A stretch of DNA of 20,500 bases from a virus (IMGVR_UViG_2778261532_000014); one strand, 5' to 3'. Shown: positions 1,493 through 18,251, counted from the stretch's first letter. Numbers and translations are program-made. Notes: generated by a model not told the origin, from the sequence alone.

Positions 1493-1520
1493 GCGCCTTG
1501 AATGCAAGGCGCTATTTATC
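1493..1520 (+). terminator. Possible hairpin terminator downstream of int
   Basis: 8-bp stem gcgccttg/caaggcgc with 4-nt loop followed by TATTTAT; weak U-tract, abuts the stop of the minus-strand gene at 1519. Confidence 0.3.
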
Positions 1521-2013
1521 AAGATAGTCTATTCAGATCAGTATTAGGTGTGTTTCTTTTTGATGCAAAGATGGATTTGAATCTTTTTGAGTAACTATCA
1601 AAAAACCATTTTGTATAATTACCTTCAATTTCCTCTAATATTGAATACTTCATCTCATGAAGTTCATTTTTATAATCACACTTTTTGCTTAACAAGTCTA
1701 AAGGTGTTGATCTGATAGATGACAACTGTTCATCACATAATAATTTCTTACCAATCCTTTGTGATAAATGAGACAGCTGCATTTCAATTAATGAGACACT
1801 GGAGGCTAAAAAATTATCCAACTCTAATTCTTTAGTATCTCTAGAAGAGAGCTTATCTAAAACATTATCAAAAAGAGATTCTATTTGCTGACAGATTTTA
1901 TCCTTTTGCCTTGAAATATCATTTCGCTTGAATGCTCTATTGTTGAAATAAGACGCAACAAGCCAACCAATTATAGCAATTACAATACTTGTATAATTAA
2001 CCTCTTCCTGCAT
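1519..2013 (-). CDS. Hypothetical protein with one N-terminal transmembrane helix (third gene of cargo operon)
   Basis: ORF in frame; ATG at 2013 (GTG at 2016 also possible); hydrophobic segment YTSIVIAIIGWLVASYF then charged coiled-coil-like region; overlaps upstream gene by 17 nt, suggesting translational coupling; AT-rich codon usage unlike flanking phage genes. Confidence 0.6.
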   Translation of the reverse strand: MQEEVNYTSIVIAIIGWLVASYFNNRAFKRNDISRQKDKICQQIESLFDNVLDKLSSRDTKELELDNFLASSVSLIEMQLSHLSQRIGKKLLCDEQLSSIRSTPLDLLSKKCDYKNELHEMKYSILEEIEGNYTKWFFDSYSKRFKSIFASKRNTPNTDLNRLS

Positions 2014-2329
2014 CACTCTCTGCCTTATTCAATCGTTCATCAATCAAGGTCTCAATACTCTTAATATCTTTATGAGTATAAGTTAGTTTTTTCTTAAGTT
2101 CGCTTAATGTGTAGCCTTCTACTCGGATCAAGCCACCAAACGCTTCATCAATAAATGAACGCCCATAACGGTTATATCCAGTCAACTCAACATGAACTAA
2201 ATCATACTCTTTGAGAAAGCCTGCCAGATATTTGCGAAAGTTTTCCCCACAGCCTGCCCCATCGTCTGGATAGCGCCCGTAAGGCTTACTGTTGAAGTCT
2301 TTGATAACATTGATATTTTTAGTCTTCAT
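1997..2329 (-). CDS. STAS-like (DUF4325-type, anti-sigma-factor-antagonist-like) small protein
   Basis: 110-aa ORF; AAGG RBS upstream of ATG at 2329; overlaps upstream ATPase gene by 11 nt; sequence pattern (YGRYPDDG...SFIDEAFGGL) recalled as typical of DUF4325/STAS-like proteins that pair with GHKL ATPases. Family assignment from memory, not a search. Confidence 0.6.
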   Translation of the reverse strand: MKTKNINVIKDFNSKPYGRYPDDGAGCGENFRKYLAGFLKEYDLVHVELTGYNRYGRSFIDEAFGGLIRVEGYTLSELKKKLTYTHKDIKSIETLIDERLNKAESDAGRG

Positions 2330-3428
2330 AGCTGACCTTGATGTTCCACTGAATTAAAGTACCTGGTACTTTATGAGTTAACTCATTAATTTTATCACCT
2401 TTCTTATTAGAAAGCTTGAACATACCTAAATTACTGTAAATCCAAAGATTTCCATGTTCATTATTTAGTACTAGAGCTTTAATACTCTTACTTCCTTGAC
2501 CATGTTTATCATTGGCTGTACCGGTTACGTCTCCAATCATAGAAATTGCTATTTTTACTGCATCAGAAACAATACCTACTTTTACTTTAGAGCGCTCTTT
2601 ATAACCTAAACCTATTCTCTCAAGTTCTTCGTTAACCGCAACCTTTAGATCTGGATATTTTGATTTGAGCGTACTCATAAACCATGTCTTTTGCATTACA
2701 GTTTCAGGTATACCAACACCTTCATCATATATAGCAAGATAAAGCTGGTCATGAATTACGTGACATGCAAGCCACCATCGTTTCTCATCATTATTTTTAT
2801 GCGGATAGGCGTGTAAACCAACATTATTTATTGCTTCCTGAACAGCATCTGCATATGTATGTTCTGTTTCAGGTTTCATCTTGTTTTTATAAATTTCTTT
2901 CTGGATGAAATCTATAATCTCATCTCTATATTCTCCTCCTACCCCGCTAATAATGGGCAAGTTTTCAACGTTTTCGAAGACAGGTTTTAATTTTTCGCCC
3001 CGACATAAGGCGACAAGACCTGAGTCTCTTAAAAGCTGATTAACTTTAAAATCTGTTGAAAATAATAATCTGTACGATAAACCTTTACGAATTGAAGTTT
3101 CAACACTGGCATAAAGTATTACTAATGCTGCCATTTTTATTGTTTTTGTATTTGTAAAATCTAAATATAATCTCTCATCAGGATTATATTTTATATTCCT
3201 GACGTGATTTATCGAGTGTAGAGAGTGCGCAAAAAAATTAGGCTTATCTGGTGAATATATTGAAAACTCAGATGGAAACCGAATAAAGGTATTATCTTTT
3301 TTCTTTTGAGATTTTTTTTGTTGACGAAACTGCGAATACTCTTTCCCTTGACGGGAAACACTTCGCTGCCATCTTTTAAAAGCCAGCCTAATTCTTACAC
3401 TTTTTTCCTTATTGGCCTTGTTTTCCAT
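2319..3428 (-). CDS. GHKL-superfamily ATPase / anti-sigma-factor-type Ser kinase-like protein with ~180-aa unknown N-terminal domain
   Basis: 369-aa ORF; AGGGGA RBS; Bergerat-fold motifs: N-box EAINNVGLHAY (SpoIIAB/RsbW-like E-x-x-N-x-x-x-H), G1 box DEGVGIP, G2-like GQGSKS; AT-rich. Confidence 0.8.
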   Translation of the reverse strand: MENKANKEKSVRIRLAFKRWQRSVSRQGKEYSQFRQQKKSQKKKDNTFIRFPSEFSIYSPDKPNFFAHSLHSINHVRNIKYNPDERLYLDFTNTKTIKMAALVILYASVETSIRKGLSYRLLFSTDFKVNQLLRDSGLVALCRGEKLKPVFENVENLPIISGVGGEYRDEIIDFIQKEIYKNKMKPETEHTYADAVQEAINNVGLHAYPHKNNDEKRWWLACHVIHDQLYLAIYDEGVGIPETVMQKTWFMSTLKSKYPDLKVAVNEELERIGLGYKERSKVKVGIVSDAVKIAISMIGDVTGTANDKHGQGSKSIKALVLNNEHGNLWIYSNLGMFKLSNKKGDKINELTHKVPGTLIQWNIKVSYED

Positions 3429-7586: not shown

Positions 7587-8045
7587 AAAAAGAGCGGTAC
7601 CAGCTGGAAGCAAGGGTACAAACTGGTACCGCCAAAGCAGTGGCTGTTGTGGTGGGGTTGTCACTCAGGCGTATGGTCAACCTGACAATCCGGTGTCCTC
7701 AACGGGGAAAGAGTAACCCCGCCATACTTACCGCCGCGCCATTTCGCGGATTACCACAACGCTGAGAGCACTTAGCCAGTTACGGCACCACACTTTGTCG
7801 CGGCTCCATAAATGCCCTCATCGTTGCACCCTGGTCTCTTCCCAGGCGTCAAACCGAATCGCCACGCTGGTTAGGCGTCTTATCAGCATCATCATTGACT
7901 TGCACATTCCGGCTACCTGGTTTGTTTGCCCGAGCAAGGAGTGGATTGTCCCCTTTAACGTCACCAGACCGCTAACGACGCATGTGCCATACGCCGTGTT
8001 ACAACCAAATTTTGTTTTAATCTTGCCTGTGTCATGTTTCTTTTG

Positions 8046-8060
8046 GATACATTATGTATC
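8046..8060. promoter_or_regulatory. Candidate left operator (OL-like) palindrome
   Basis: GATACAttaTGTATC palindrome followed by GGGTACATTGTCAAG; shares TACA/TGTA and GGTACA half-sites with the cI-cro intergenic palindrome. Confidence 0.4.
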
Positions 8061-8081
8061 TCATGGGTACATTGTCAAGCA

Positions 8082-8105
8082 TAAAAAAACCTGCCGAAGC
8101 AGGTT
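8082..8105 (-). terminator. Rho-independent terminator downstream of cI
   Basis: On minus strand: 6-bp stem (acctgc/gcaggt) with cgaa loop followed by TTTTTTT (plus-strand A-run 8083-8089); 13 nt after the cI stop. Confidence 0.65.
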
Positions 8106-8117
8106 CATAAATATTGA

Positions 8118-8792
8118 TTAGGCCTTTATTGTGTATCTTCTTGGTTTTCCCGAGAAAATCACTGTACCAATTATAGAGCAATTACCGTTAATCTTAATGT
8201 AAGGCTCAGGCCAGTTTGGGTTTAATGCTTTGAGATAACGCTGTGTTCCATCTTCTATCAACCGCTTGAAGGTGGTTTCGCCTGAATCGTGCATCAATGC
8301 AATAACGTCGTCACCGTGGCAGGCAGGGACTTCAGGATCTACAAAAATCATGTCTCCCGGGCGGTACTCATCAATCATTGAATCACCAATCACCCGCAAG
8401 ATATAAGTCATTTCGCCACAGGGTACAGGGCAGGGATAAGTTTCTGCTGTGCTCAAATCAACCTCAGAATAGCCAACTTCTTTCCATGCTCCGGCCTGTA
8501 CCCATGATATGACAGGGACTAACGTTATTTGTTTGTTAGTAATTGAAACATCAGGTTTTTTTGTGATGTTTGTTGTCTGGTGTTCTTGATCAAGCCATCC
8601 GACAGGCAGGTCGAAACATTTTTCGATGTGCCGTGCCATGCTGTCACCGATATTTTTAGTAGCACCATCTCCCATAAACCTGCTGGTCTGGGTTGGCTCG
8701 CGATCAATCATGGTGGCAAAGGAAGAATTCCCGCCAACACCATCTCTCAGTTTTCTGGCGTTAGACCGCCGGATGTCATGGACTGTTTTCAT
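8118..8792 (-). CDS. CI-like phage repressor (N-terminal HTH, C-terminal S24 LexA-like autopeptidase domain)
   Basis: 224-aa ORF; C-terminal GDSM (Ser nucleophile) and downstream Lys typical of S24 peptidases; divergent from cro. Confidence 0.9.
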   Translation of the reverse strand: MKTVHDIRRSNARKLRDGVGGNSSFATMIDREPTQTSRFMGDGATKNIGDSMARHIEKCFDLPVGWLDQEHQTTNITKKPDVSITNKQITLVPVISWVQAGAWKEVGYSEVDLSTAETYPCPVPCGEMTYILRVIGDSMIDEYRPGDMIFVDPEVPACHGDDVIALMHDSGETTFKRLIEDGTQRYLKALNPNWPEPYIKINGNCSIIGTVIFSGKPRRYTIKA

Positions 8793-8882
8793 AACGAAAT
8801 TAAAACCTTTGTACCGATAGGGTACAAGTATCTTGAAGGTTCATCTCAATCATGTAATATGTATATCGGAGGTACATATTGT
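8793..8882. promoter_or_regulatory. Divergent cI/cro promoter-operator region (OR-like)
   Basis: 90-bp intergenic between divergent starts; palindrome TTGTACC-gatag-GGTACAA at 8809-8827 and related TACAtatTGTA element abutting the cro start. Confidence 0.6.
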
Positions 8883-9083
8883 ATGAAAGCGTATTGGGAC
8901 TCTTTAACCAAAGAACAGCAGGGCGAGTTGGCCGTAAAAGTTGGCTCAACACCAGGCTACTTACGGCTGGTTTTCAATGGTTATAAAAAAGCCAGTTTTG
9001 TGCTGGCTAAAAAACTTGAGCAATGCACGTCAGGTGCAATTACGAAATCTGACTTAAGACCGGATATCTATCCGAAAGATTAA
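8883..9083 (+). CDS. Cro-like HTH regulator
   Basis: 66-aa ORF from ATG 8883 preceded by GGAGG; the 167-aa ORF in the track is an upstream extension antisense to cI. Confidence 0.75.
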   Translation: MKAYWDSLTKEQQGELAVKVGSTPGYLRLVFNGYKKASFVLAKKLEQCTSGAITKSDLRPDIYPKD

Positions 9084-9114
9084 CAGAACACCTTCAATTT
9101 TTAACCACAGAACG

Positions 9115-9678
9115 ATGAGGCTAACCGTGGGTAAGCATCACTGGAAAGTAGAAAAACAGCCTGAGTGGTACGTGAAAGCTGTCAGAAAAACTATCGCGGC
9201 GTTGCCGGGAGGTTACGCTGAAGCTGCTGAGTGGCTGGATGTAACAGAGAACGCTTTATTCAACCGCCTTCGTGCAGATGGCGATCAGATTTTCCCGCTG
9301 GGATGGGCAATGATTTTACAGCGCGCGGCTGGCACTCACTACATTGCGGATGCTGTCGCACAGTCTGCTGATGGGGTGTTTGTATCGCTTCCTGAACTTG
9401 AGGAAGTAGAGAACGCCGATATAAACCAGCGCCTGCTGGAAGTCATCGAACAGATCGGGAGTTACTCAAAGCAGATTCGTTCGGCAATCGAAGATGGGGT
9501 AGTGGAGCCACACGAGCAGACAGCAATTAATGATGAGTTGTATCTGTCAATTTCGAAGCTCCAGGAGCATGCAGCACTGGTCTACAAAATCTTTTGCGCT
9601 CCAGAAAAGAGTGACGCCCGCGAGTGTGCAGCTCCGGGCGTCGTGGCGTTTTGTGTCTGTGGAGAAACTAACGCATGA
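9115..9678 (+). CDS. CII-like phage regulatory protein (CP76/YdaT-like)
   Basis: 187-aa ORF directly after cro; N-terminal region resembles CII-family proteins by recollection; weak RBS; start uncertain. Confidence 0.55.
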   Translation: MRLTVGKHHWKVEKQPEWYVKAVRKTIAALPGGYAEAAEWLDVTENALFNRLRADGDQIFPLGWAMILQRAAGTHYIADAVAQSADGVFVSLPELEEVENADINQRLLEVIEQIGSYSKQIRSAIEDGVVEPHEQTAINDELYLSISKLQEHAALVYKIFCAPEKSDARECAAPGVVAFCVCGETNA

Positions 9679-10511
9679 ACAGTTTAACGGCAAATAACCG
9701 TTTGTCGCAACAGCTGGTGGTCAGTGTCGCTGAACACCTGTTGTTACGGCATGAATGCAGATTACCAAATCACCTGGCTGTAAGTAACCACAGAGAACTT
9801 TACCTGACTGTGGGGGGCGAGTTGTGCAGGAACTTAACCGCTGGTTTCGTGACGGAAGAGGGCTTTATGTCCATGTTATTCGTTGGGAGCCAGAAACACA
9901 GCGCGTTATCTATCTTCGCAAAGACTACCCGCATGAGTGCTTTAGTCCTTTGTGGAAATTCAGGCGTGATTTTGTTGAGTGTGAAGGACCACCAGCACAT
10001 TGATTCTGCCATTCCGGGACGTTACACTGTTCAGGCACCTTATAAAGCGGGTGCCGGGATTGGCGTCCTGGAAATGTTATCGGCGATATATGACGCGCCA
10101 GCGTCTTTTTTATCGTCTGCGTCTGCGCACCCCCAAATTATGGTGGGCTGGACGGGGGCACCGAAAGGTGCGCCGGTTTCCGATAACGCCGGTTACGCCA
10201 ACCCCGTTCAGTTCACCACCAGCGAAATTGGCGTTTCCGGTGGTGAAGGTAATTCACTGTTATCGGAGGCTGTCATCATGGCTACTGTCCCAGCCCTCAC
10301 TCGTCTGAATGATGAAGACTTACATAAACTCAGTTATGTAACAACTGCACTACGTGCTCTGCGCAAGGTAACTCTTTCGGATCCGCAGGCGCATCAGGTT
10401 CTGGTAGAAACCCTTCTTAACTTGCAGGCTGAACGTATTCGTCTGGCGGATAAGGCTAATTTTCATATTCACCGTCTCCTGAATATCAGCGGAGGGCATC
10501 GTCATGCTTAA
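9675..10511 (+). CDS. Hypothetical protein(s); reading frame ambiguous in the first third
   Basis: 278-aa open frame with ATGA and ATGCTTAA overlaps at both ends; region 10010-10511 has clear coding periodicity; a protein-like alternative frame exists at 9788-10003 next to a G6 run (see findings). Confidence 0.45.
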   Translation: MNSLTANNRLSQQLVVSVAEHLLLRHECRLPNHLAVSNHRELYLTVGGELCRNLTAGFVTEEGFMSMLFVGSQKHSALSIFAKTTRMSALVLCGNSGVILLSVKDHQHIDSAIPGRYTVQAPYKAGAGIGVLEMLSAIYDAPASFLSSASAHPQIMVGWTGAPKGAPVSDNAGYANPVQFTTSEIGVSGGEGNSLLSEAVIMATVPALTRLNDEDLHKLSYVTTALRALRKVTLSDPQAHQVLVETLLNLQAERIRLADKANFHIHRLLNISGGHRHA

Positions 10512-10740
10512 TCCGTTGATCCTCAATATTTGCCGTTTGCTTCAGCGTAAAAAAACATCAATTCCTACAGTTGGGCAGTGGTACACCACGCCTGCAGGGC
10601 ATGTTCTACGTGTTAGCCTGGTTGACCGTGAATGCCAGAAGGTGATTTGTGAACCGCTGGGCCGTAATTACCGCGTCATTATGCCGCTTATAGCCTTTCG
10701 CTCCGGAAAAAACATGAAGCATCTCGGAGGTGCAGCATGA
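10504..10740 (+). CDS. Hypothetical small phage protein
   Basis: 78-aa ORF; GGAGGG RBS 7 nt upstream; start/stop overlaps with both neighbours. Confidence 0.55.
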   Translation: MLNPLILNICRLLQRKKTSIPTVGQWYTTPAGHVLRVSLVDRECQKVICEPLGRNYRVIMPLIAFRSGKNMKHLGGAA

Positions 10741-11555
10741 GTATGGAGCTGATGGTTAAAGCGATGAAAATTAGAGTGGGTAATCCATTGCGAAAACTGG
10801 TTCTGATCAAGCTGGCTGATAATGCCAGCGATAAGGGTGAGTGCTGGCCCAGCTACCAGCATATTGCTGACCAGTGCGAGATTAGCAAACGTTCTGTGAT
10901 GAATCATATTGCGGCCCTTTGTGAGTCCGGGCTGGTAAAAAAAGTCACCCGGAAAGGTGAAAAAGGTAACTCAAGTAATATCTATCTCCTTCATCTTGAT
11001 GGTGCAGGAGATTCACTAGGGGGTAGTGCAAATGATTCACTATCTGGTGCAGCAAATTCACCAGGTAGTGCAGGAGTTGCACTTGGGGGTAGTGCAGGAG
11101 ATTCACCCAGAACCAGTCACTCTTTTGAACCAGTCAAAGAACCAGTCAATGAACCAATAGCTGTTGGTGAATCTGCTGATGAGTCTGTGCGAGTTCGTTC
11201 AAACCGACCGGAATACTCTCCGGAGTTTGAGCAGGCATGGCTGGCATACCCCAAACGTGCTGGTGGCAATTCAAAATCTGCAGCCTTCAAAGCCTGGAAA
11301 GCCCGTTTGAATGAGGGGGTAAAACCCGAAACCATGCTGGAAGGTGTGAAACGCTACGCGGGCTGGGTATCTGCGATGGGTAACAGCGGCACACAATTTG
11401 TGAAACAGGCTGTCACGTTCTTTGGTCCGGATCGTCATTTCGAAGAATCCTGGGAAGTTCCTGCGGTATCTGCAGCCAGACGCGAGGACCCGTACTTCAA
11501 AGCCAGTTACGACAACGTGGACTACAGCCAGATCCCGGCAGGATTCAGGGGGTGA
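10737..11555 (+). CDS. Phage replication initiation protein (O-like replisome organizer with N-terminal winged helix)
   Basis: 272-aa ORF; GGAGG RBS; N-terminal HTH segment typical of phage replication initiators; internal DNA iterons consistent with an ori embedded in the initiator gene, as in lambda O. Confidence 0.75.
   Translation: MSMELMVKAMKIRVGNPLRKLVLIKLADNASDKGECWPSYQHIADQCEISKRSVMNHIAALCESGLVKKVTRKGEKGNSSNIYLLHLDGAGDSLGGSANDSLSGAANSPGSAGVALGGSAGDSPRTSHSFEPVKEPVNEPIAVGESADESVRVRSNRPEYSPEFEQAWLAYPKRAGGNSKSAAFKAWKARLNEGVKPETMLEGVKRYAGWVSAMGNSGTQFVKQAVTFFGPDRHFEESWEVPAVSAARREDPYFKASYDNVDYSQIPAGFRG
11001..11160. repeat. Iteron-like direct repeats inside replication gene (putative ori)
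   Basis: About five ~21-bp units with core TGCA-N3-4-ATTCAC (11001-11107) followed by three GAACCAGTCA repeats (11109-11160). Confidence 0.6.
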
Positions 11556-11557
11556 TT

Positions 11558-12046
11558 ATGAGTCTTTTGAATGAAGTTCAGAAATTCATTGAAGCCCATC
11601 CGGGGTGTACTTCCGGAGACATTGCGGATGCTTTTGCTGGTTACTCACGGCAGCGCGTTCTGCAGTCAGCAAGCAAGTTACGTCAGAGTGGGCGTGTGGC
11701 TCACCGTTGTGAAGGAGATACACGCAGACATTTCCCGCGCCTGACTGAGAGAGCGCAGGAGCCGGAACCACAATCTGTTCGTGAAACCAGACCTGTGCGC
11801 AATTTCTATGTCGGCACTAACGATCCCCGTGTGATTTTGTGCCTGACCCGCCAGGCTGAAGAACTGGAGTCCAGGGGCTTATACCGTCGTGCTGCAACGG
11901 TGTGGATGGCGGCATTCCGTGAAAGCCACTCCCAGCCAGAACGAAACAATTTTCTGGCGCGTCGTGAGCAGTGTTTACGGAAAAGCAGCAAGCGCGCTGT
12001 ATCGGGTGATGAGTGGTATCTGTCAGGGAATTACGTGGGGGCTTAA
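11558..12046 (+). CDS. PerC-family transcriptional regulator-like protein
   Basis: ATG 11558 with AGGGGG RBS 6 nt upstream (track starts at GTG 11552); motif LESRGLYRRAATVWMAAF...FLARREQCLRK matches the PerC/Pch signature as I recall it. Confidence 0.65.
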   Translation: MSLLNEVQKFIEAHPGCTSGDIADAFAGYSRQRVLQSASKLRQSGRVAHRCEGDTRRHFPRLTERAQEPEPQSVRETRPVRNFYVGTNDPRVILCLTRQAEELESRGLYRRAATVWMAAFRESHSQPERNNFLARREQCLRKSSKRAVSGDEWYLSGNYVGA

Positions 12047-12372
12047 TGACGACGTTAACTCAATGCCAGCAGCAGGTGCTGGATATGCTGATTTCTTATC
12101 AGAAAGAACGTGGTTTCCCGCCAACCAATCAGGAGGTGGCAGCCATGCTGGGATACCGTTCGGTGAATGCAGCGGTGGAGCATCTTCGCGCACTGGAGAA
12201 AAAAGGCGTCATCACGATAAAGCGTGGCGTGGCCCGGGGTATCACGCTTCATACCACAGTGAAGGACGACGACAGCGAGGCAGCCGGGATTATCCGCGCA
12301 CTGCTTGCCGGTGAGGAAAACGCCAGACTGCGTGCAGCCCACTGGTTACATGAGAGGGGCCTGAAAGTATGA
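12046..12372 (+). CDS. LexA N-terminal DNA-binding-domain protein lacking the S24 peptidase domain
   Basis: 108 aa from ATG 12046 (TAATG overlap); MTTLTQCQQQVLDMLISYQKERGFPPTNQEVAAMLGYRSVNAAVEHLRALEKKGVITIKRGVARGITL aligns closely with the LexA winged-helix domain; no cleavage-site or Ser/Lys domain follows. Confidence 0.8.
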   Translation: MTTLTQCQQQVLDMLISYQKERGFPPTNQEVAAMLGYRSVNAAVEHLRALEKKGVITIKRGVARGITLHTTVKDDDSEAAGIIRALLAGEENARLRAAHWLHERGLKV

Positions 12373-12758
12373 AGCTGATCCTGCCTTTCCCGCCCAGCGT
12401 GAACACGTACTGGCGACACCCCAACAAAGGGGCGTTTGCTGGTAAGAGTCTGATAAGCGCAGCGGGGCGCAAATTCCAGAGCGCGGCATGCGCAGCAATA
12501 GTTGAGCAGTTACGTCGTCTGCCGAAACCAACGTCGGCACCTGCTTCAGTGGAGATCGTGTTGTTTCCTCCGGATAACCGGATCCGCGATCTGGACAACT
12601 ATAACAAGGCGCTGTTTGACGCCCTGACCCACGCGGGTGTGTGGGAAGACGACAGACAGGTGAAAAGAATGCTGGTGGAGTGGGGACCGGTTATCCCGAA
12701 AGGGAAGGTCGAGATCACTATCAGTAAGTATGAGAAACCGGCGGGTGCAGCCGCCTGA
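12369..12758 (+). CDS. rusA: RusA-family Holliday junction resolvase
   Basis: 129-aa ORF; ATGA overlap with upstream gene; conserved RusA features (PPSVNTYWRH, DLDNYNKALFDALT). Confidence 0.9.
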   Translation: MKLILPFPPSVNTYWRHPNKGAFAGKSLISAAGRKFQSAACAAIVEQLRRLPKPTSAPASVEIVLFPPDNRIRDLDNYNKALFDALTHAGVWEDDRQVKRMLVEWGPVIPKGKVEITISKYEKPAGAAA

Positions 12759-12777
12759 TTAAGAGGAGAAACGAAGT

Positions 12778-13575
12778 ATGAATAATCTGATGGTTATTGA
12801 TGGTATTGAAGTTCGTCGTGATGCTTATGGGCGTTACAGCCTGAACGATCTGCACAGGGCTGCTGGTTCTCTGGATAAGCATAAGCCTGCATTCTGGCTC
12901 CGCAATGAGCAAACTGAGCGTTTAATAAGCGAGTTGCAGATTTGCAACTCGGTCAATATAGAGCCAGTTAACGTTATTCGTGGCGGAAATAACCAGGGGA
13001 CGTATGTCTGCAAAGAACTGGTGTATGCCTATGCAATGTGGATCAGCCCGTCATTCCATCTGAAGGTGATCCGTACTTTCGACATGGTAACCAGCGCACC
13101 GGAAAAATTATCCGGACAGGCTGCTGACAAGATGCAGGCTGGTGTGATCCTGCTGGACTTTATGCGCCGGGAATTAAACCTGTCTAACTCATCAGTGCTT
13201 GGAGCCTGTCAGAAGCTTCAGGAGGCTGTTGGCTTACCGAATCTGGCACCGCGCTATGCCATTGATGCTCCTGCTGACGCGCCTGATGGCTCAAGCCGCC
13301 CCACGCTGTCACTGAGTGCACTGCTGAAGCAGTATGGTATCCGCCTGACAGCTAATCAGGCATATCACCAGATGGTGAAGCTGGGGATCGTCGAGCAGCG
13401 CGAACGATACAGCCGTACCGCGATTAACAACATCAAAAAATTCTGGTCGCTGACAGCGAAAGGCTGCATGTTCGGCAAGAATATCACCAGTCCCGCAAAT
13501 CCGCGCGAGACGCAGCCGCATTTCTTCGAATCCCGATTCCCTGAGCTGTTAAAGCTGCTCGATACCGTTCATTGA
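12778..13575 (+). CDS. KilA-N domain protein (antirepressor-like)
   Basis: 265-aa ORF; GAGGAG RBS; N-terminal KilA-N-like region. Confidence 0.75.
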   Translation: MNNLMVIDGIEVRRDAYGRYSLNDLHRAAGSLDKHKPAFWLRNEQTERLISELQICNSVNIEPVNVIRGGNNQGTYVCKELVYAYAMWISPSFHLKVIRTFDMVTSAPEKLSGQAADKMQAGVILLDFMRRELNLSNSSVLGACQKLQEAVGLPNLAPRYAIDAPADAPDGSSRPTLSLSALLKQYGIRLTANQAYHQMVKLGIVEQRERYSRTAINNIKKFWSLTAKGCMFGKNITSPANPRETQPHFFESRFPELLKLLDTVH

Positions 13576-13576
13576 G

Positions 13577-14572
13577 GTGACCGTGAGAGCACTACTGACC
13601 CCTGAAATTGCCCCGCGTATGGGGATCGTATTGTTCAGGCCAGGTTCAGAGTTGATGCCCCTGTTTATGCAGGGGCGTGTCCTGCTGGAGCCTGAGCCGG
13701 AACGTTATTCATCTTTCGCCAGTGGTGCCGTTCCGGCGGCATCACAACCGCTGGCGGATGATCCTGCCGTTCGGGCCGTGTTCCGCAATGAGGCAGTGAT
13801 CCGTCGTGCTGGTGGCGTGGAATGTCTTGAAAGCTGGTTACTTCGTGAAAAAGGCTGCCAGTGGCCTCATTCCGACTGGCACAGCGAGAACATGACCACA
13901 ATGCGACACGCTCCGGGCGCAATCCGTCTGTGCTGGCACTGCGATAACCAGCTGCGCGATCAGTTCACGGAACGGCTGGAATCAATGGCAACGGATAACT
14001 GTGCCCGCTGGGTGTTGTCTGTTGTGCGTCGGGATCTCGGTTTTGATGACAGTCACGTTGTGACAATGCCGGAACTGTGCTGGTGGCTGATTCGTAATGA
14101 TCTGGCGGATGCCTTACCGGAAAGTGCAGCCCGTAAGGCACTGAGATTACCGAAGCCTGTTGTGCCGTCTGTCACCCGGGAAAGTGACCTTGTGCCTTCG
14201 GTTCCTGCCACCAGCATCATCCAGGATAAAGCGAAAAAGGTGCTGGCGCTGAAAGTGGATCCGGAGTCGCCGGAGTCTTTTATGTTACGCCCAAAACGTC
14301 GCCGCTGGGTTAATGAAAAGTACACGCGCTGGGTTAAGACACAGCCGTGTGCATGTTGTGGAAAGCCCGCTGATGATCCCCACCACCTGATAGGCCACGG
14401 TCAGTGTGGAATGGGTACAAAAGCGCATGACCTTTTTGTGTTGCCTTTGTGCAGAAAGCATCACGACGAGCTGCATGCGGATACCGTGGCATTTGAAGAG
14501 AGGTATGGCTCCCAGCTGGAGCTGATATTTCGTTTTATCGATCGTGCGCTGGCAATTGGCGTGCTGGCCTGA
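13577..14572 (+). CDS. DUF968 domain protein (HNH/zinc-finger-like C-terminus)
   Basis: 331-aa ORF; C-terminal CACCGKP...HHLIGHG...CRKHHDELH motif typical of DUF968; start codon uncertain (GTG 13577 or downstream). Confidence 0.75.
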   Translation: MTVRALLTPEIAPRMGIVLFRPGSELMPLFMQGRVLLEPEPERYSSFASGAVPAASQPLADDPAVRAVFRNEAVIRRAGGVECLESWLLREKGCQWPHSDWHSENMTTMRHAPGAIRLCWHCDNQLRDQFTERLESMATDNCARWVLSVVRRDLGFDDSHVVTMPELCWWLIRNDLADALPESAARKALRLPKPVVPSVTRESDLVPSVPATSIIQDKAKKVLALKVDPESPESFMLRPKRRRWVNEKYTRWVKTQPCACCGKPADDPHHLIGHGQCGMGTKAHDLFVLPLCRKHHDELHADTVAFEERYGSQLELIFRFIDRALAIGVLA

Positions 14573-14589
14573 TTTTGTGGAGAAAGTTG

Positions 14590-14952
14590 ATGCGTGATAT
14601 TCAAATGGTTCTGGATCGTTGGGGAGCATGGGCGGCGAGTGATAGTTCAGGAGTAGACTATTCTCCTATAGCTGCTGGGTTTAAAGGGCTTCTTCCCTAT
14701 ACAAGCAAAACACGTCAGGCTTGTTCAGATAGTGATGCATTAATTATTGAAGGTTGTCTTGCTCTTCTTAAAAAGCGAAAACCGTACGAGCATTCTTTGA
14801 TTGTGGCCCATTACCTGTATGGCATCTCGAAAAGAAAGCTTGCAAGAGCTCGCAAAAAAGATGAGAAATTGATACGTATAGAGATACAGATGGCTGAAGG
14901 GTTTATTGATGGATGCCTTTCAATGCTGGATGTTAAACTTGAAATGGAGTAG
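14590..14952 (+). CDS. Late-gene antitermination protein Q (QuuD/Q82-like family)
   Basis: 120 aa from ATG 14590 with GGAG RBS; MRDIQMVLDRWGAWAA N-terminus and overall pattern match DLP12 QuuD-type Q proteins as recalled. Confidence 0.85.
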   Translation: MRDIQMVLDRWGAWAASDSSGVDYSPIAAGFKGLLPYTSKTRQACSDSDALIIEGCLALLKKRKPYEHSLIVAHYLYGISKRKLARARKKDEKLIRIEIQMAEGFIDGCLSMLDVKLEME

Positions 14953-14980
14953 AAAAAAGGGCATTTCTGCCCTTTTTAAA
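14953..14980. terminator. Bidirectional Rho-independent terminator between Q and the convergent cassette
   Basis: Hairpin gggca-tttc-tgccc flanked by A6 upstream and T5 downstream; serves the stop of Q (14952) and the stop of the minus-strand gene (14976). Confidence 0.7.
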
Positions 14981-15419
14981 TGTGGGGGAGTATCCAGTTT
15001 ACTTTTCTCCATGTAAAGGCAAAAGTTATTACTGAAATGATAAGAAGAGATAAAGATTCGATAATTAAAATAAATTCTATTTTTTCTCCATGTAACAATG
15101 TCTTTTCATTGGCAAACATTGCTATCAAAGCAATAACGCATGCCGTAATTAAAGATGCACCTGCGGTTAATAGATTTACAATAATAACTTGAAGTATGTT
15201 GTTGTTTTTTAATGCTTTTATTATTCCATTTGAGTTTTCGCTAGCAGCACTAAAAATTGATTTTGTGGCTAAAATAAAACCAAATAAAATACCGGATACA
15301 GTTGAAATAACCCCGGAGGCTGTAAGTATGTCAGCATGCCCCATCTGAGGGATATACCTCAGTAGGAACAAGGTGCAAAAAACACTTACAATCAGGTTTC
15401 TTAAGTATTTCAATAACAT
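14976..15419 (-). CDS. Four-TM small membrane protein (RexB-like candidate effector)
   Basis: 147-aa ORF with four predicted hydrophobic helices; 3-nt gap to upstream gene; very AT-rich. Confidence 0.7.
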   Translation of the reverse strand: MLLKYLRNLIVSVFCTLFLLRYIPQMGHADILTASGVISTVSGILFGFILATKSIFSAASENSNGIIKALKNNNILQVIIVNLLTAGASLITACVIALIAMFANEKTLLHGEKIEFILIIESLSLLIISVITFAFTWRKVNWILPHI

Positions 15420-15422
15420 ATC

Positions 15423-16364
15423 CTATACCTTCTTTTTGCTGATATCGTATTGCTTAAGGTATTCATTGTTATCAATTTTAGCAGAAATCATGGCTTGCAG
15501 AACATCACTATCAGTGCCATAACCATTAACGGTATATATGTTTTTTTCTGAAATGAGTACCTGATCAAGAAGACTTTGTTCAACGGTATTTTTGGGCTGT
15601 GTTACTGCCGCTTTTTTTACAATTCCCGGCATTTTTTCAAGGAGTTCTTTAATACCATCCTTAACGAGATCTGATAAATAACCTTTGACTTTTACTCTCC
15701 CTGATGCACGTCCCCTTAGATTTAACTTGAGACGTGTTCCACCCAGCCCTACCATCATATTTACCAGTTCCTTAGAAAATGAACTATTTAGCTGGTAATT
15801 TGTTGCATCAAAGTTCCTGGGAGCAGCCAGGACAATATCACAACTTCTCAAAGTACTTCCTGTTTCAAGTAGCTCTTTGACGCTCTCTTTTTTCCAGATG
15901 GCTTGGAATGAAAAGTTATTTCCAGGATTACCACTCTGGCTGTAAAGCAGATAAGCTAAATCCGATTCTTTCGGCCCAAGATGATTTTGAGTTAATATTA
16001 AAATATCACTATCGTAATAATATAAAAAATAGGTTCTTTCGACTATGTATTTTTTATCATCTAGTGGTATGTTGTGCTCATTCCAGTGTTCATCACCAAT
16101 ATAAGGAAGGAGATACTCTTCTCGTGAGCATGACATGTAGCCGAAGAAATATTTAGCTTTTGTATCTTTATTTATAAAAGCTATTTTTAACTTTTTATTT
16201 CTATAGATGGTATCAAAATGATTATTCGTAACGGTTACGCAAGTATTATACAGATTTTCAATTGCTTGCTTAGCAACTGAATGGCTGCGGATAGTCCCAG
16301 AACTGCTGGTGTAAAAACCAATTTTAAGTTTTTTTTGTTTCTTTGATTGCGCAATAGTAGCCAT
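15423..16364 (-). CDS. Hypothetical 313-aa cytoplasmic protein (candidate sensor partner of the 4-TM protein)
   Basis: AAGG RBS 7 nt upstream of ATG at 16364; Lys/Asn/Tyr-rich AT-rich composition; no motif I can assign. Confidence 0.7.
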   Translation of the reverse strand: MATIAQSKKQKKLKIGFYTSSSGTIRSHSVAKQAIENLYNTCVTVTNNHFDTIYRNKKLKIAFINKDTKAKYFFGYMSCSREEYLLPYIGDEHWNEHNIPLDDKKYIVERTYFLYYYDSDILILTQNHLGPKESDLAYLLYSQSGNPGNNFSFQAIWKKESVKELLETGSTLRSCDIVLAAPRNFDATNYQLNSSFSKELVNMMVGLGGTRLKLNLRGRASGRVKVKGYLSDLVKDGIKELLEKMPGIVKKAAVTQPKNTVEQSLLDQVLISEKNIYTVNGYGTDSDVLQAMISAKIDNNEYLKQYDISKKKV

Positions 16365-16497
16365 GTTAAACCTTAGTATACTAATAATTTCTTATGGATC
16401 TTATTTTTTATATGGCTTTAATTTAGCAAAAAAAAATTACCGCGGTCCGCAAATTTTATCTTAATCTGTTAAGAGTGGTTACTTCGCCACACAGCTT

Positions 16498-16521
16498 AAA
16501 CCCGCCGTCGAGCGGTTTTTT
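16498..16521 (+). terminator. Possible plus-strand terminator-like hairpin
   Basis: acccgc-cgtcga-gcggtt stem-loop followed by TTTTTT; no annotated plus-strand gene ends here, so the terminated transcript is unknown. Confidence 0.35.
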
Positions 16522-16619
16522 GTACCTGTAAACCTGGTGCAGTACAGTAAACACGCTGGTGGTCGTGAATACTGACTTTTTATCTTGCTGGCTTTTTAGA
16601 CAAGAGTTATTGGTATGTC

Positions 16620-16847
16620 ATGTTAACCAGAAGGGAAAAAGACATGCTAAAACAGCAAGATATGACAGAAACCGCCGCCGCAGTCCTTCATTTCTTACCT
16701 GCTGACAAGTGGGTAACGCCACGCATGATGACGAGAACTACCGGAGTAAGCGAAGCCCAGTGCCAGTTAATACTGACTCAGTTAGTTCTGGCGGGTCTGG
16801 CGAAGGATAACGGCGGGTACGGGAATAAATTCAGACGCTGCCAGTAA
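16620..16847 (+). CDS. Hypothetical small protein upstream of methyltransferase
   Basis: 75-aa ORF; start ambiguous (ATG 16620 or 16644); weak RBS. Confidence 0.45.
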   Translation: MLTRREKDMLKQQDMTETAAAVLHFLPADKWVTPRMMTRTTGVSEAQCQLILTQLVLAGLAKDNGGYGNKFRRCQ

Positions 16848-16997
16848 TGGCGGTTTCCTGCTGTGAAAATGGGCGGCTGGTGGGTGTTGGTAGCACCTGC
16901 CAGCCATTCGCTCATGCTTACTGGTCACAAGCGAACCACGGCCCACTGCTTTAGCGCAAAAGCAGAGTGAGCCTACCAGAGTTACGCTTACTGATCC

Positions 16998-18056
16998 ATG
17001 AAAAATACTGTAAAAATAAACAGTGTTGATTTGATCAACGCTGATTGCCTGCATTTTATTCAGTCCCTGCCTGATGATTCCATTGACCTGATTGTTACCG
17101 ATCCGCCGTACTTCAAGGTGAAACCCAACGGCTGGGACAATCAGTGGAAAGGGGACGAAGGTTACCTTAAGTGGCTGGACCACTGTCTGGCCCAGTTCTG
17201 GCGGGTGTTGAAACCTGCCGGAAGCCTTTACCTGTTCTGTGGACATCGCCTGGCATCTGATATTGAGATCATGATGCGTGAACGTTTCAACGTGCTTAAC
17301 CATATCATCTGGGCGAAGCCGTCCGGACGTTGGAACGGGTGCAACAAGGAAAGCCTGCGGGCGTATTTTCCGGCAACAGAGCGCATTCTGTTTGCCGGAC
17401 ATTATCAGGGGCCATATCAGCTAAAAAATGATGGCTATGCGGCAAAGGGCAGGGCTCTGAAACAGCATGTGATGGCCCCGCTGATTTCTTACTTTTGTGA
17501 TGCGCGTGCGGCCCTGGGGATTACGGCAAAACAGATTGTGGATGCTACAGGAAAGAAAAACATGGTGTCGCACTGGTTCAGTGCCAGTCAGTGGCAGCTA
17601 CCGAATGAAAGCGATTATCTGAAATTACAGGCACTGTTTGCCCGAGTGGCAGAAGAGAAGCACCAGTGCGGAGAACTGGAAAAGCCACATTACCAACTGG
17701 TCAGCACATACAGTGAACTGAACCGGCAGTATACGGAACTGCTGAGTGAATATAAAAATTTGCGGCGGTATTTCGGTGTGACTGTGCAGGTGCCGTACAC
17801 CGATGTGTGGACGCATAAACCGGTGCAGTACTATCCCGGGAAGCACCCGTGCGAAAAACCGGCAGAAATGTTGCAGCAGATAATCAGCGCAAGCAGCCGT
17901 CCGGGAGACCTGGTTGCAGATTTCTTCATGGGGTCAGGTTCGACAGTCAAAGCAGCGATGGCGCAGGGACGTCGTGTGATTGGTGTTGAGCTGGAGACTG
18001 AGCGTTTTGAGCAGACGGTCAGGGAAGTACAGGATTTAGTCAGTCAGAACGGATGA
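16998..18056 (+). CDS. Orphan N6-adenine DNA methyltransferase (beta-class, DPPY motif)
   Basis: 352-aa ORF; motif IV TDPPYF near N-terminus and motif I FFMGSGST near C-terminus; no adjacent restriction endonuclease gene. Confidence 0.9.
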   Translation: MKNTVKINSVDLINADCLHFIQSLPDDSIDLIVTDPPYFKVKPNGWDNQWKGDEGYLKWLDHCLAQFWRVLKPAGSLYLFCGHRLASDIEIMMRERFNVLNHIIWAKPSGRWNGCNKESLRAYFPATERILFAGHYQGPYQLKNDGYAAKGRALKQHVMAPLISYFCDARAALGITAKQIVDATGKKNMVSHWFSASQWQLPNESDYLKLQALFARVAEEKHQCGELEKPHYQLVSTYSELNRQYTELLSEYKNLRRYFGVTVQVPYTDVWTHKPVQYYPGKHPCEKPAEMLQQIISASSRPGDLVADFFMGSGSTVKAAMAQGRRVIGVELETERFEQTVREVQDLVSQNG

Positions 18057-18096: not shown

Positions 18097-18172
18097 GGCC
18101 CTTTAGCTCAGTGGTTAGAGCGAGCGACTCATAATCGCCAGGTCGCTGGTTCAAATCCAGCAAGGGCCACCA
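18097..18172 (+). tRNA. tRNA-Ile2 (anticodon CAU; ileX/ileZ-like; Met not excluded)
   Basis: 76 nt; perfect 7-bp acceptor stem, D-arm GCTC/GAGC, anticodon loop CTCATAA, T-arm GCTGG-TTCAAAT-CCAGC, encoded CCA; close to E. coli ileX as recalled. Confidence 0.85.
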
Positions 18173-18174
18173 TT

Positions 18175-18251
18175 CCGCCACCAGCTCATCTGGATAGAGC
18201 ATCAGCCTTCTAAGTTGATTGTGCGAGGTTCGAGCACCCGGTGGCGGACCA
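18175..18251 (+). tRNA. tRNA-Arg (anticodon UCU, AGA-decoding) with imperfect T-stem
   Basis: 77 nt; perfect acceptor stem CCGCCAC/GTGGCGG, canonical D-arm, anticodon loop CTTCTAA, encoded CCA; T-stem has two mismatches including position 53-61. Confidence 0.6.

Follow-up and report, generated by a model that had tools for sequence, protein, structure and literature searches.

The only phage homologue of the LexA N-terminal domain (NTD) to have been characterised, and the closest characterised analogue of the protein described here, is gp6 of the Bacillus tectivirus GIL01/Bam35, which shares 44% identity with the NTD of its host's LexA, binds the sequence GaCACAC/GTGTGaC and activates the late promoter P3 (PMC6182141). 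In phage lambda, NinH mimics the nucleoid protein Fis and forms a DNA-binding homodimer (PMC7166090). Here we examine a 108-residue protein encoded by a lambdoid prophage on a viral stretch of 20,500 nucleotides (nt) (IMGVR_UViG_2778261532_000014; the whole stretch is referred to as the window). The protein joins a LexA-type DNA-binding head to a conserved two-helix tail and has no autoprotease domain. A full-text literature search found no experimental characterisation of this enterobacterial protein; phage 1720a-02 also carries the gene, and a preprint traces the interference phenotype of that phage to Cro.

Residues 1-68 are a true LexA winged-helix domain, closest to enterobacterial LexA. 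Over this segment 35 of 68 residues (51%) are identical to E. coli LexA 1-68 without a gap (BLASTP, E=2e-21), and residues 1-65 match the entire 65-position Pfam model LexA_DNA_bind, PF01726 (E=3.4e-19; 68.8 bits, where the cut-off is 23.7). The alignment over about 70 N-terminal residues claimed in a first-pass annotation of this DNA is thereby borne out. The top sequence matches in the PDB are the LexA NTD (1lea) and full-length LexA (1jhh and 3jso). An AlphaFold (AF2) model of the single chain, with a mean predicted local distance difference test (pLDDT) score of 78, shows a head made up of three helices (residues 6-22, 28-35 and 40-52) followed by a beta wing (56-68), and superposes on DNA-bound LexA (3jso) with a root-mean-square deviation of 1.0 Å over 67 residues (Foldseek). 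As judged from these comparisons, the resemblance to LexA lies far beyond chance.

The protease half of LexA is absent, as had also been claimed. No Peptidase_S24 match was found in the protein with Pfam, and there is no room for such a domain because the chain stops at residue 108 and rusA begins at the stop codon. The lexA equivalog model TIGR00498 is matched at positions 1-91 only and scores 67.6 bits, below its cut-off of 110.95, as expected when the C-terminal half is missing. The supposed loss of the Ala-Gly site needs correcting in one respect: a dipeptide A88-G89 (nt 12307-12312) is present, and HMMER pairs it with A84-G85 of LexA. It is nevertheless not a credible cleavage site. The same position reads AN or VG in close relatives and EG, SG, DD or AC in other subfamilies, and in the model A88-G89 lies at the end of helix 74-87, in the turn into the second helix. 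Since the dipeptide varies within the family and is predicted to be helical, we rejected the idea that it is a vestigial cleavage site. Having neither a catalytic S24 domain nor a functional Ala-Gly site, the protein should not respond to RecA* and therefore would not be switched off by it. A LexA DNA-binding domain without the autoprotease, carried by a prophage, is thus the right structural description by Pfam, BLASTP and fold alike.

That description had passed over the C-terminal part of the protein. Where LexA has its S24 protease domain stands a tail of about 35 residues, in which the pattern hhxxhh-turn-ARxRAxxxL is kept across subfamilies and the length and hydrophobic pattern are conserved down to 39% identity. 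Full-length relatives of the same architecture, at 39-50% identity, were recovered from a search of 1.84 billion representative proteins. No significant relatives of the tail were found in the PDB by profile search or in Pfam by scan, and Foldseek matched only the head of the protein well, not the tail. The weak full-length fold matches were to the dimeric winged helix-turn-helix (wHTH) repressors MepR, ArsR and MntR, which dimerise through helices outside the wHTH. We infer from the single-chain model that the tail stands in for the C-terminal domain of LexA and serves for dimerisation or for binding a partner. Other proteins, among them P0127, P0129, P0134, P0137, P0139 and P0144, contain two tandem LexA DNA-binding domains and no S24 domain; these could be single-chain pseudo-dimers.

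The residues through which LexA contacts DNA are S39, N41, A42, E44 and E45 (PMC3091678). Four of the five are retained in the 108-residue protein, E44 being replaced by V; H46 and the wing residues R64-G65-I66 are also kept, whereas R28 is lost. We aligned 151 unique family proteins from 270 loci, corresponding to 97 non-redundant loci. Across all subfamilies H46 and R64-G65-I66 never vary, and S39, N41 and A42 vary little or not at all. At position 45 the residue (E, D, A or L) depends on the subfamily; the subfamily of the window keeps E45 and is the most LexA-like. On this alignment the head is clearly LexA-like but systematically changed.

Cleavage of LexA leaves a 1-84 fragment, which resembles the phage protein in lacking the protease domain through which LexA dimerises; this fragment can still bind operators to some extent, and its removal requires ClpXP. 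The ...VAA end of that fragment is a degradation signal, whereas the phage protein ends in ...GLKV. The cleavage products of LexA are degraded by ClpXP and Lon (PMC3159453). Unlike LexA itself, the protein is phage-encoded and its gene lies in an early lytic operon. In this respect it resembles gp6, also a LexA DNA-binding domain without the cleavage domain that belongs to the early lytic genes of an SOS-induced temperate phage. On the other hand, gp6 has 66 residues and no tail, and GIL01 is a Gram-positive tectivirus rather than an enterobacterial lambdoid siphovirus. BLASTP produced no alignment between the window protein and GIL01 ORF6 (66 residues) at E<=100; we rejected orthology, and the relation is limited to a shared fold. 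The window protein originated independently of gp6, as a separate capture of a gammaproteobacterial LexA head. With NinH the parallel is conceptual: each small phage protein copies the DNA-binding portion of a host protein that acts globally, and each gene has recombination genes for neighbours in the ninR region, which separates the replication genes from Q. The host model here is LexA and not Fis, the fold is different, and dimerisation and DNA binding have been shown for NinH while here they are predicted.

The protein belongs to an enterobacterial family (the WIN, P0122, P0126, P0149/165 and N-terminally extended clades) whose members have about 105-135 amino acids, a wHTH and then the two-helix tail. 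It matches phrog_362 from residue 1 to residue 108 (profile positions 1-106 of 106, E=3.5e-58), and the entries PHROG 362, NCBI 'LexA family protein', SfV orf42 and the mEp460 protein are its own family, with no differences. The names 'transcriptional repressor' (PHROG 362) and 'LexA repressor' or 'LexA family protein' (NCBI WP_000210132.1) are annotations by similarity. The gene is common: of 5426 complete E. coli genomes, 2703 have a match to the 1.3-kb yfdN-gene-rusA block, and 2169 of these match it with at least 80% coverage, so that about 40-50% of the genomes contain the block. Over the 1.3-kb query the window is 100% identical to E. coli EC416. The three genes occur together in SfV, mEp460, cdtI and Stx2 phages as well, and more than 595 IMG/VR contigs carry the LexA-NTD gene. 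Among phages, 61 records encode the protein, 54 of them matched over at least 80% of its length. These include genes with 93-100% identity in SfV (orf42), SfII, SfIV, cdtI, mEp460 ('LexA DNA binding domain protein'), 2H10 and Stx2a/Stx2c phages, and further records from Ayreon and Stx2k phages.

The position of the gene is also characteristic. The window contains a lambdoid prophage adjoining yjjG, in the order integrase, S24-type CI-like repressor, Cro-like and CII-like genes, Ash-like open reading frame (ORF), O/DnaD-like replication gene, yfdN, the LexA-NTD gene, RusA, KilA-N, DUF968 and Q, followed by a reverse-strand gene pair, a methyltransferase, tRNAs and lysis genes. The run from rep through yfdN, the gene, rusA, KilA-N and DUF968 to Q is the nin-type position of the family. 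Of 89 non-redundant family loci, 74 have RusA no more than 1 kb downstream and 87 have DUF968, the most constant neighbour, no more than 3.5 kb downstream. This synteny persists although the replication and immunity modules differ and genes have been inserted. The first-pass annotation had recognised the prophage setting but not the near-constant position upstream of RusA and DUF968.

The reading frame is intact, with ATG at 12046, TGA at 12370-12372 and 108 codons, exactly as first annotated. A Shine-Dalgarno-like GGGGG run lies 5-9 nt before the ATG. A longer form starting from GTG at 12013 is possible, but the start at 12046 is favoured because of the family alignment and because MTTLT matches the MKALT of LexA. 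The stop codon of yfdN overlaps the start of the gene (TAATG), and its own stop overlaps the start of rusA (ATGA); the gene is therefore a translationally coupled internal member of an operon. The operon is the early-right (pR-type) one, in which the gene follows the replication genes and precedes Q. Since a scan found no plus-strand terminator and no plus-strand promoter-like match between 10105 and the gene, it should be transcribed with the early-right operon after cleavage of CI. The S24-type CI-like repressor, by its domain content, should be the RecA-responsive switch that releases this operon.

A different arrangement is found in the N-terminally extended sister clade, from prophages of Klebsiella, Enterobacter and Buttiauxella. 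Here 19 of 22 non-redundant loci have a near-consensus SOS box (for example, TACTGTTTATTTATACAGTA and TACTGTATATATATACAGTA) at a distance of 420-500 nt before the gene. A terminator-like hairpin precedes the box in both loci inspected (L009, 5531-5579; L014, 5561-5580), and in L009 the box begins directly after a sigma-70-like promoter match. Between box and gene is a conserved small ORF, phrog_1813, and the run reads phrog_1813 - LexA-NTD - (RusA) - DUF968 - Q. This layout implies direct control of the predicted operon, Q included, by host LexA. An S24 repressor was found within 5 kb upstream in 49 of 66 loci of the box-less clades and in none of 20 loci of the extended clade. With an SOS box in one clade and an upstream S24 repressor in the others, the gene is therefore arranged in every lineage for expression when RecA* is active. 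As judged from these layouts, expression ties the family to the SOS circuit; binding of those boxes by the phage protein is a separate matter. Seventeen further IMG/VR loci are of the extended type (e.g., L022-L043 and L192-L196).

Searching the prophage for SOS boxes, a check that the first-pass annotation had suggested, gave two exact CTGT-N8-ACAG cores in the window, at 9778 and 17006, of which the second is strong. The core at 9778 (GGCTGTAAGTAACCACAGAG) is probably a chance occurrence, being inside a coding region and having poor flanks and a GC-rich spacer. The box at 17006 overlies the start of a DNA methyltransferase (N6/N4) gene at 16998-18056. Its CTGT and ACAG are kept in the phage homologues from Citrobacter (phiNP), Morganella and Providencia, while the spacer and the encoded residues change; in Klebsiella Kp4866-6 the box is lost. 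The same type of box occurs a few kb downstream of the family gene in several subfamilies (L014, L045, L195 and L263). The 17006 box is a candidate target of host LexA and possibly of the phage protein. Every listed E. coli or Shigella phage with the methylase has the LexA-NTD gene, and many have the gene without the methylase; as these phages are close mosaics, this co-occurrence is uninformative.

We also searched the 97 non-redundant loci for CTGT-Nx-ACAG with x=2-14. Cores with x=8 are enriched, 53 matches against 3-15 at the other spacings, and 19 cores lie in the 500 nt directly upstream of the family gene, all in the N-terminally extended clade. An operator with another half-site spacing was rejected, as the enrichment is at x=8 only. 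The slight excess at x=6 (15 matches) is mostly one repeated sequence common to P0126-type loci, roughly 0.9-1.9 kb upstream of the gene.

The reading that we favour, with a probability of roughly 0.4, is that the protein would act as an uncleavable, tail-dimerised LexA-type binder on CTGT-type operators during lytic growth, when LexA has been destroyed. Inactivation of the S24-type CI would allow transcription of the early-right operon and synthesis of the protein, and dimerisation, in LexA a matter of the C-terminal domain, would be taken over by the tail. Dimers would bind CTGT-type (SOS-like) operators, for which the host SOS boxes and the phage box at 17006 are candidates. Host LexA having just been destroyed, the protein would be an uncleavable surrogate by which LexA-regulated promoters are brought back under control or retuned in lytic growth. 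The function first proposed for the protein, namely occupancy of SOS boxes, immunity to RecA* and tuning of the SOS response or of induction, is plausible. In its favour are the four retained contact residues and the wing, the near-consensus SOS boxes ahead of the sister clade and the strong box at 17006. More tentatively, a RecA-proof LexA stand-in could re-occupy SOS boxes while the phage replicates, and thereby shut down the host SOS response, toxins or defences linked to it, and those antirepressors of competing prophages that LexA controls; we regard this as a doubtful, though possible, outcome. In a variant at which natural fusions (see below) hint, the winged helix would also steer the neighbouring DUF968 HNH protein to such sites.

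Several observations weigh against the surrogate reading. R28 and E44 are lost in 151 of 151 family proteins, while the full-length LexAs in the same match list retain R28 in 9 of 11 and E44 in 8 of 11. Positions 43-47 of helix 3 vary by subfamily (AVEHL, ATDML, AAEHV and VLLHL), although the hosts of these subfamilies, where identified, are Enterobacteriaceae throughout. Because helix 3 differs among subfamilies that share enterobacterial hosts, the variation suggests diverging specificities and not one fixed SOS target for the whole family. There is no SOS box before the gene in the window, nor upstream of it in any of the six loci of its subfamily (0/6), and a box in that position was accordingly rejected. 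The boxes of the sister clade are perfect sites for host LexA and need not be sites for the phage protein. Dimerisation is itself a proposal that we infer from a single-chain model, and a different dimer module could impose another half-site spacing. Finally, gp6 of GIL01 shows that a protein of this kind can have its own target.

This last point leads to the alternative that the protein is a phage-specific regulator of the gp6 type, with the LexA fold re-targeted to its own operator and activating or repressing a phage promoter, for example that of late or moron genes. It is possible, and nearly as likely as an uncleavable binder of SOS-like operators. The precedent is direct, gp6 being a truncated LexA homologue that recognises a private palindrome and switches on the late promoter P3 (PMC6182141); the loss of R28 and E44 and the variable helix 3 fit a change of target, and the 'transcriptional repressor' label of PHROG 362 fits a regulator. 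S39, N41 and A42, however, are fixed in all subfamilies. No candidate operator was found, and from the replication gene to Q the genes follow one another with hardly a gap. Among short-range inverted repeats in 8000-17200 nothing but the SOS box is operator-like, and of the CTGT/ACAG spacings other than 8 only 6 is slightly raised, for the reason given above. What is more, the late genes are already served by the Q antiterminator.

Next in order, though unlikely, is an accessory role in a ninR-type recombination module, in which the wHTH and tail would recruit or regulate the DUF968 protein, RusA or both on DNA. The constancy of DUF968 and RusA in the family loci despite module shuffling, together with the translational coupling to rusA, is in keeping with such a role, but lambdoid nin synteny can result from module inheritance alone. 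Neither does DUF968 need the LexA-NTD protein: it occurs in 175 phage records, about three times the 61 that have the LexA-NTD protein, and any dependence between the two, if real, is one-way only. Three diverged clusters (79-80% identical) fuse the LexA NTD to the C-terminal domain of DUF968, in the slot just before Q, and DUF968 has been reported as fused to several recombination proteins (PMC4118853). However, DUF968 fusions with Dam, HTH_36 and KilA-N in degraded prophages look like deletion artefacts, and the LexA-NTD fusions drop the tail and so say nothing about its partner. One of the fusions, P0147 (relatives P0252 and P0253), lies at 5576-8117 of L008 (ENA contig NODE_2_length_401712) and joins the LexA NTD to the HNH-containing C-terminal domain of DUF968. 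In this Rac-like prophage Q comes just after the fusion gene; ahead of the gene are a phrog_1813 ORF and a phage recA that appears to be divided into RecA_N and RecA_C ORFs.

A very improbable alternative is that the tail mimics the cleavage-site region of LexA and docks either onto RecA* or into the cleft that holds the active site of LexA or CI, thereby blocking or diverting autocleavage. HMMER aligns IIRALLAGE of the tail with LVGRVAAGE of LexA, Ala-Gly included, and a related Klebsiella phage has genes that modulate SOS, dinI for one, in the corresponding region. Yet the similarity amounts to a few hydrophobic positions, the segment is predicted to be helical and not a strand, and the Ala-Gly and surrounding residues vary across subfamilies. 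That the gene is a decaying remnant of a captured lexA with no present function is hardly credible: frameshifted and truncated copies exist in some genomes, but across many genera relatives from 96% down to 39% identity keep the intact length and the tail, which contradicts decay, translational coupling is preserved, and the gene is present in the active phages mEp460, SfV, cdtI and Stx2 as well as in the many IMG/VR contigs counted above.

The gene is a common and already annotated member of the nin region, and its family is catalogued. If binding to SOS boxes is true, a phage gene present in many E. coli, including lysogens of Shiga-toxin phages, could override the DNA-damage circuit after induction, and mutagenesis, the output of toxin phages and competition among co-resident prophages could be affected. 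If the protein is a RecA-proof stand-in for LexA, phages, Stx2 phages included, would widely carry a brake on the SOS response, on mutagenesis and on the induction of other prophages in the same cell. If it has its own operator, it would be the second independently evolved re-use of the LexA head as a private regulator by a phage, after gp6. The gene is small and is carried by the culturable phages mEp460, SfV and 2H10, which makes these possibilities easy to test. The features of the locus are listed in Table 1.

Table 1. Coordinates in the window of the LexA-NTD gene, the parts of its product and associated features (CDS, coding sequence; aa, amino acids).
Feature	Position	Strand	Evidence
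LexA-NTD-plus-tail CDS, 108 aa	12046..12372	+	ORF, Pfam, NCBIfam and PHROG matches; RefSeq annotation of 100% identical locus
LexA-type winged helix-turn-helix, residues 1-68	12046..12249	+	PF01726; 51% identity to LexA; AF2 model; Foldseek
Recognition helix, residues 40-52, VNAAVEHLRALEK, after S39	12163..12201	+	LexA alignment; family table; contact list (PMC3091678)
Low-confidence acidic linker HTTVKDD, residues 69-75	12250..12270	+	pLDDT <50 for residues 71-75
Two-helix family-specific tail, residues 74-103	12265..12354	+	AF2 helices 74-87 and 93-103; conservation across subfamilies
yfdN, PerC-family protein, upstream operon partner	11552..12046	+	ORF, Pfam, annotation; stop overlaps start of LexA-NTD gene
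RusA Holliday-junction resolvase, downstream operon partner	12369..12758	+	ORF, Pfam; start overlaps stop of LexA-NTD gene
DUF968 protein (Orf/NinB-like N-terminus + HNH)	13577..14572	+	Pfam E=7e-80
Q-type antiterminator, end of same rightward gene run	14575..14952	+	PHROG 79; RefSeq annotation
CI-like repressor (ymfK type) with S24 peptidase domain	8118..8792	-	Pfam Peptidase_S24 E=2e-26; annotation
Strong SOS-box-like site TACTGTAAAAATAAACAGTG	17006..17025	.	Exact CTGT-N8-ACAG core search; over codons 3-10 of DNA methyltransferase gene

YfdN, the upstream partner, is a 164-residue protein whose C-terminal region is PerC/ANR-like (Pfam PerC, E=1e-9) and whose N-terminus may form a winged helix; PerC-like genes are found upstream in many loci of the family. 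Further upstream, two Rfam matches reach gathering level on the plus strand, isrK (RF01394) at 10035-10111 with 63.7 bits and the C4 antisense RNA (RF01695) at 10136-10223 with 82.8 bits. Both fall within an annotated 'Ash family' ORF at 9675-10511, which suggests a P1/P7 immI-like or Gifsy-1 isrK-type RNA module downstream of the CII-like gene.

Two groups of reverse-strand genes were noted. Between Q and the late region, genes for a hypothetical protein and a DUF6731 protein (14976-15419 and 15423-16364) are flanked by terminator-like hairpins, a moron-like layout. Adjoining the integrase, at 1519-3428, are three cargo-like genes, for a hypothetical protein, a STAS-like domain protein and a 369-residue hypothetical protein. 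PADLOC gave no meaningful match for the pair at 14976-16364, for the genes at 1519-3428 or for the LexA-NTD gene, and membership of the latter in a defence system was rejected on this basis.

Before the methyltransferase gene, a non-coding stretch of about 110 nt (~16862-16975, plus strand) is conserved down to the Morganella and Providencia phages. It has no Rfam match, contains a 14-bp hairpin (GGCUGGUGGGUGUU...AGCACCUGCCAGCC) and folds better than shuffled sequences (z=-2.6); it may be part of a late-operon leader. Downstream of the methyltransferase, at 18097-18248 on the plus strand, are tRNA-Ile and tRNA-Arg genes, at the place where Stx phages carry tRNAs and stx.

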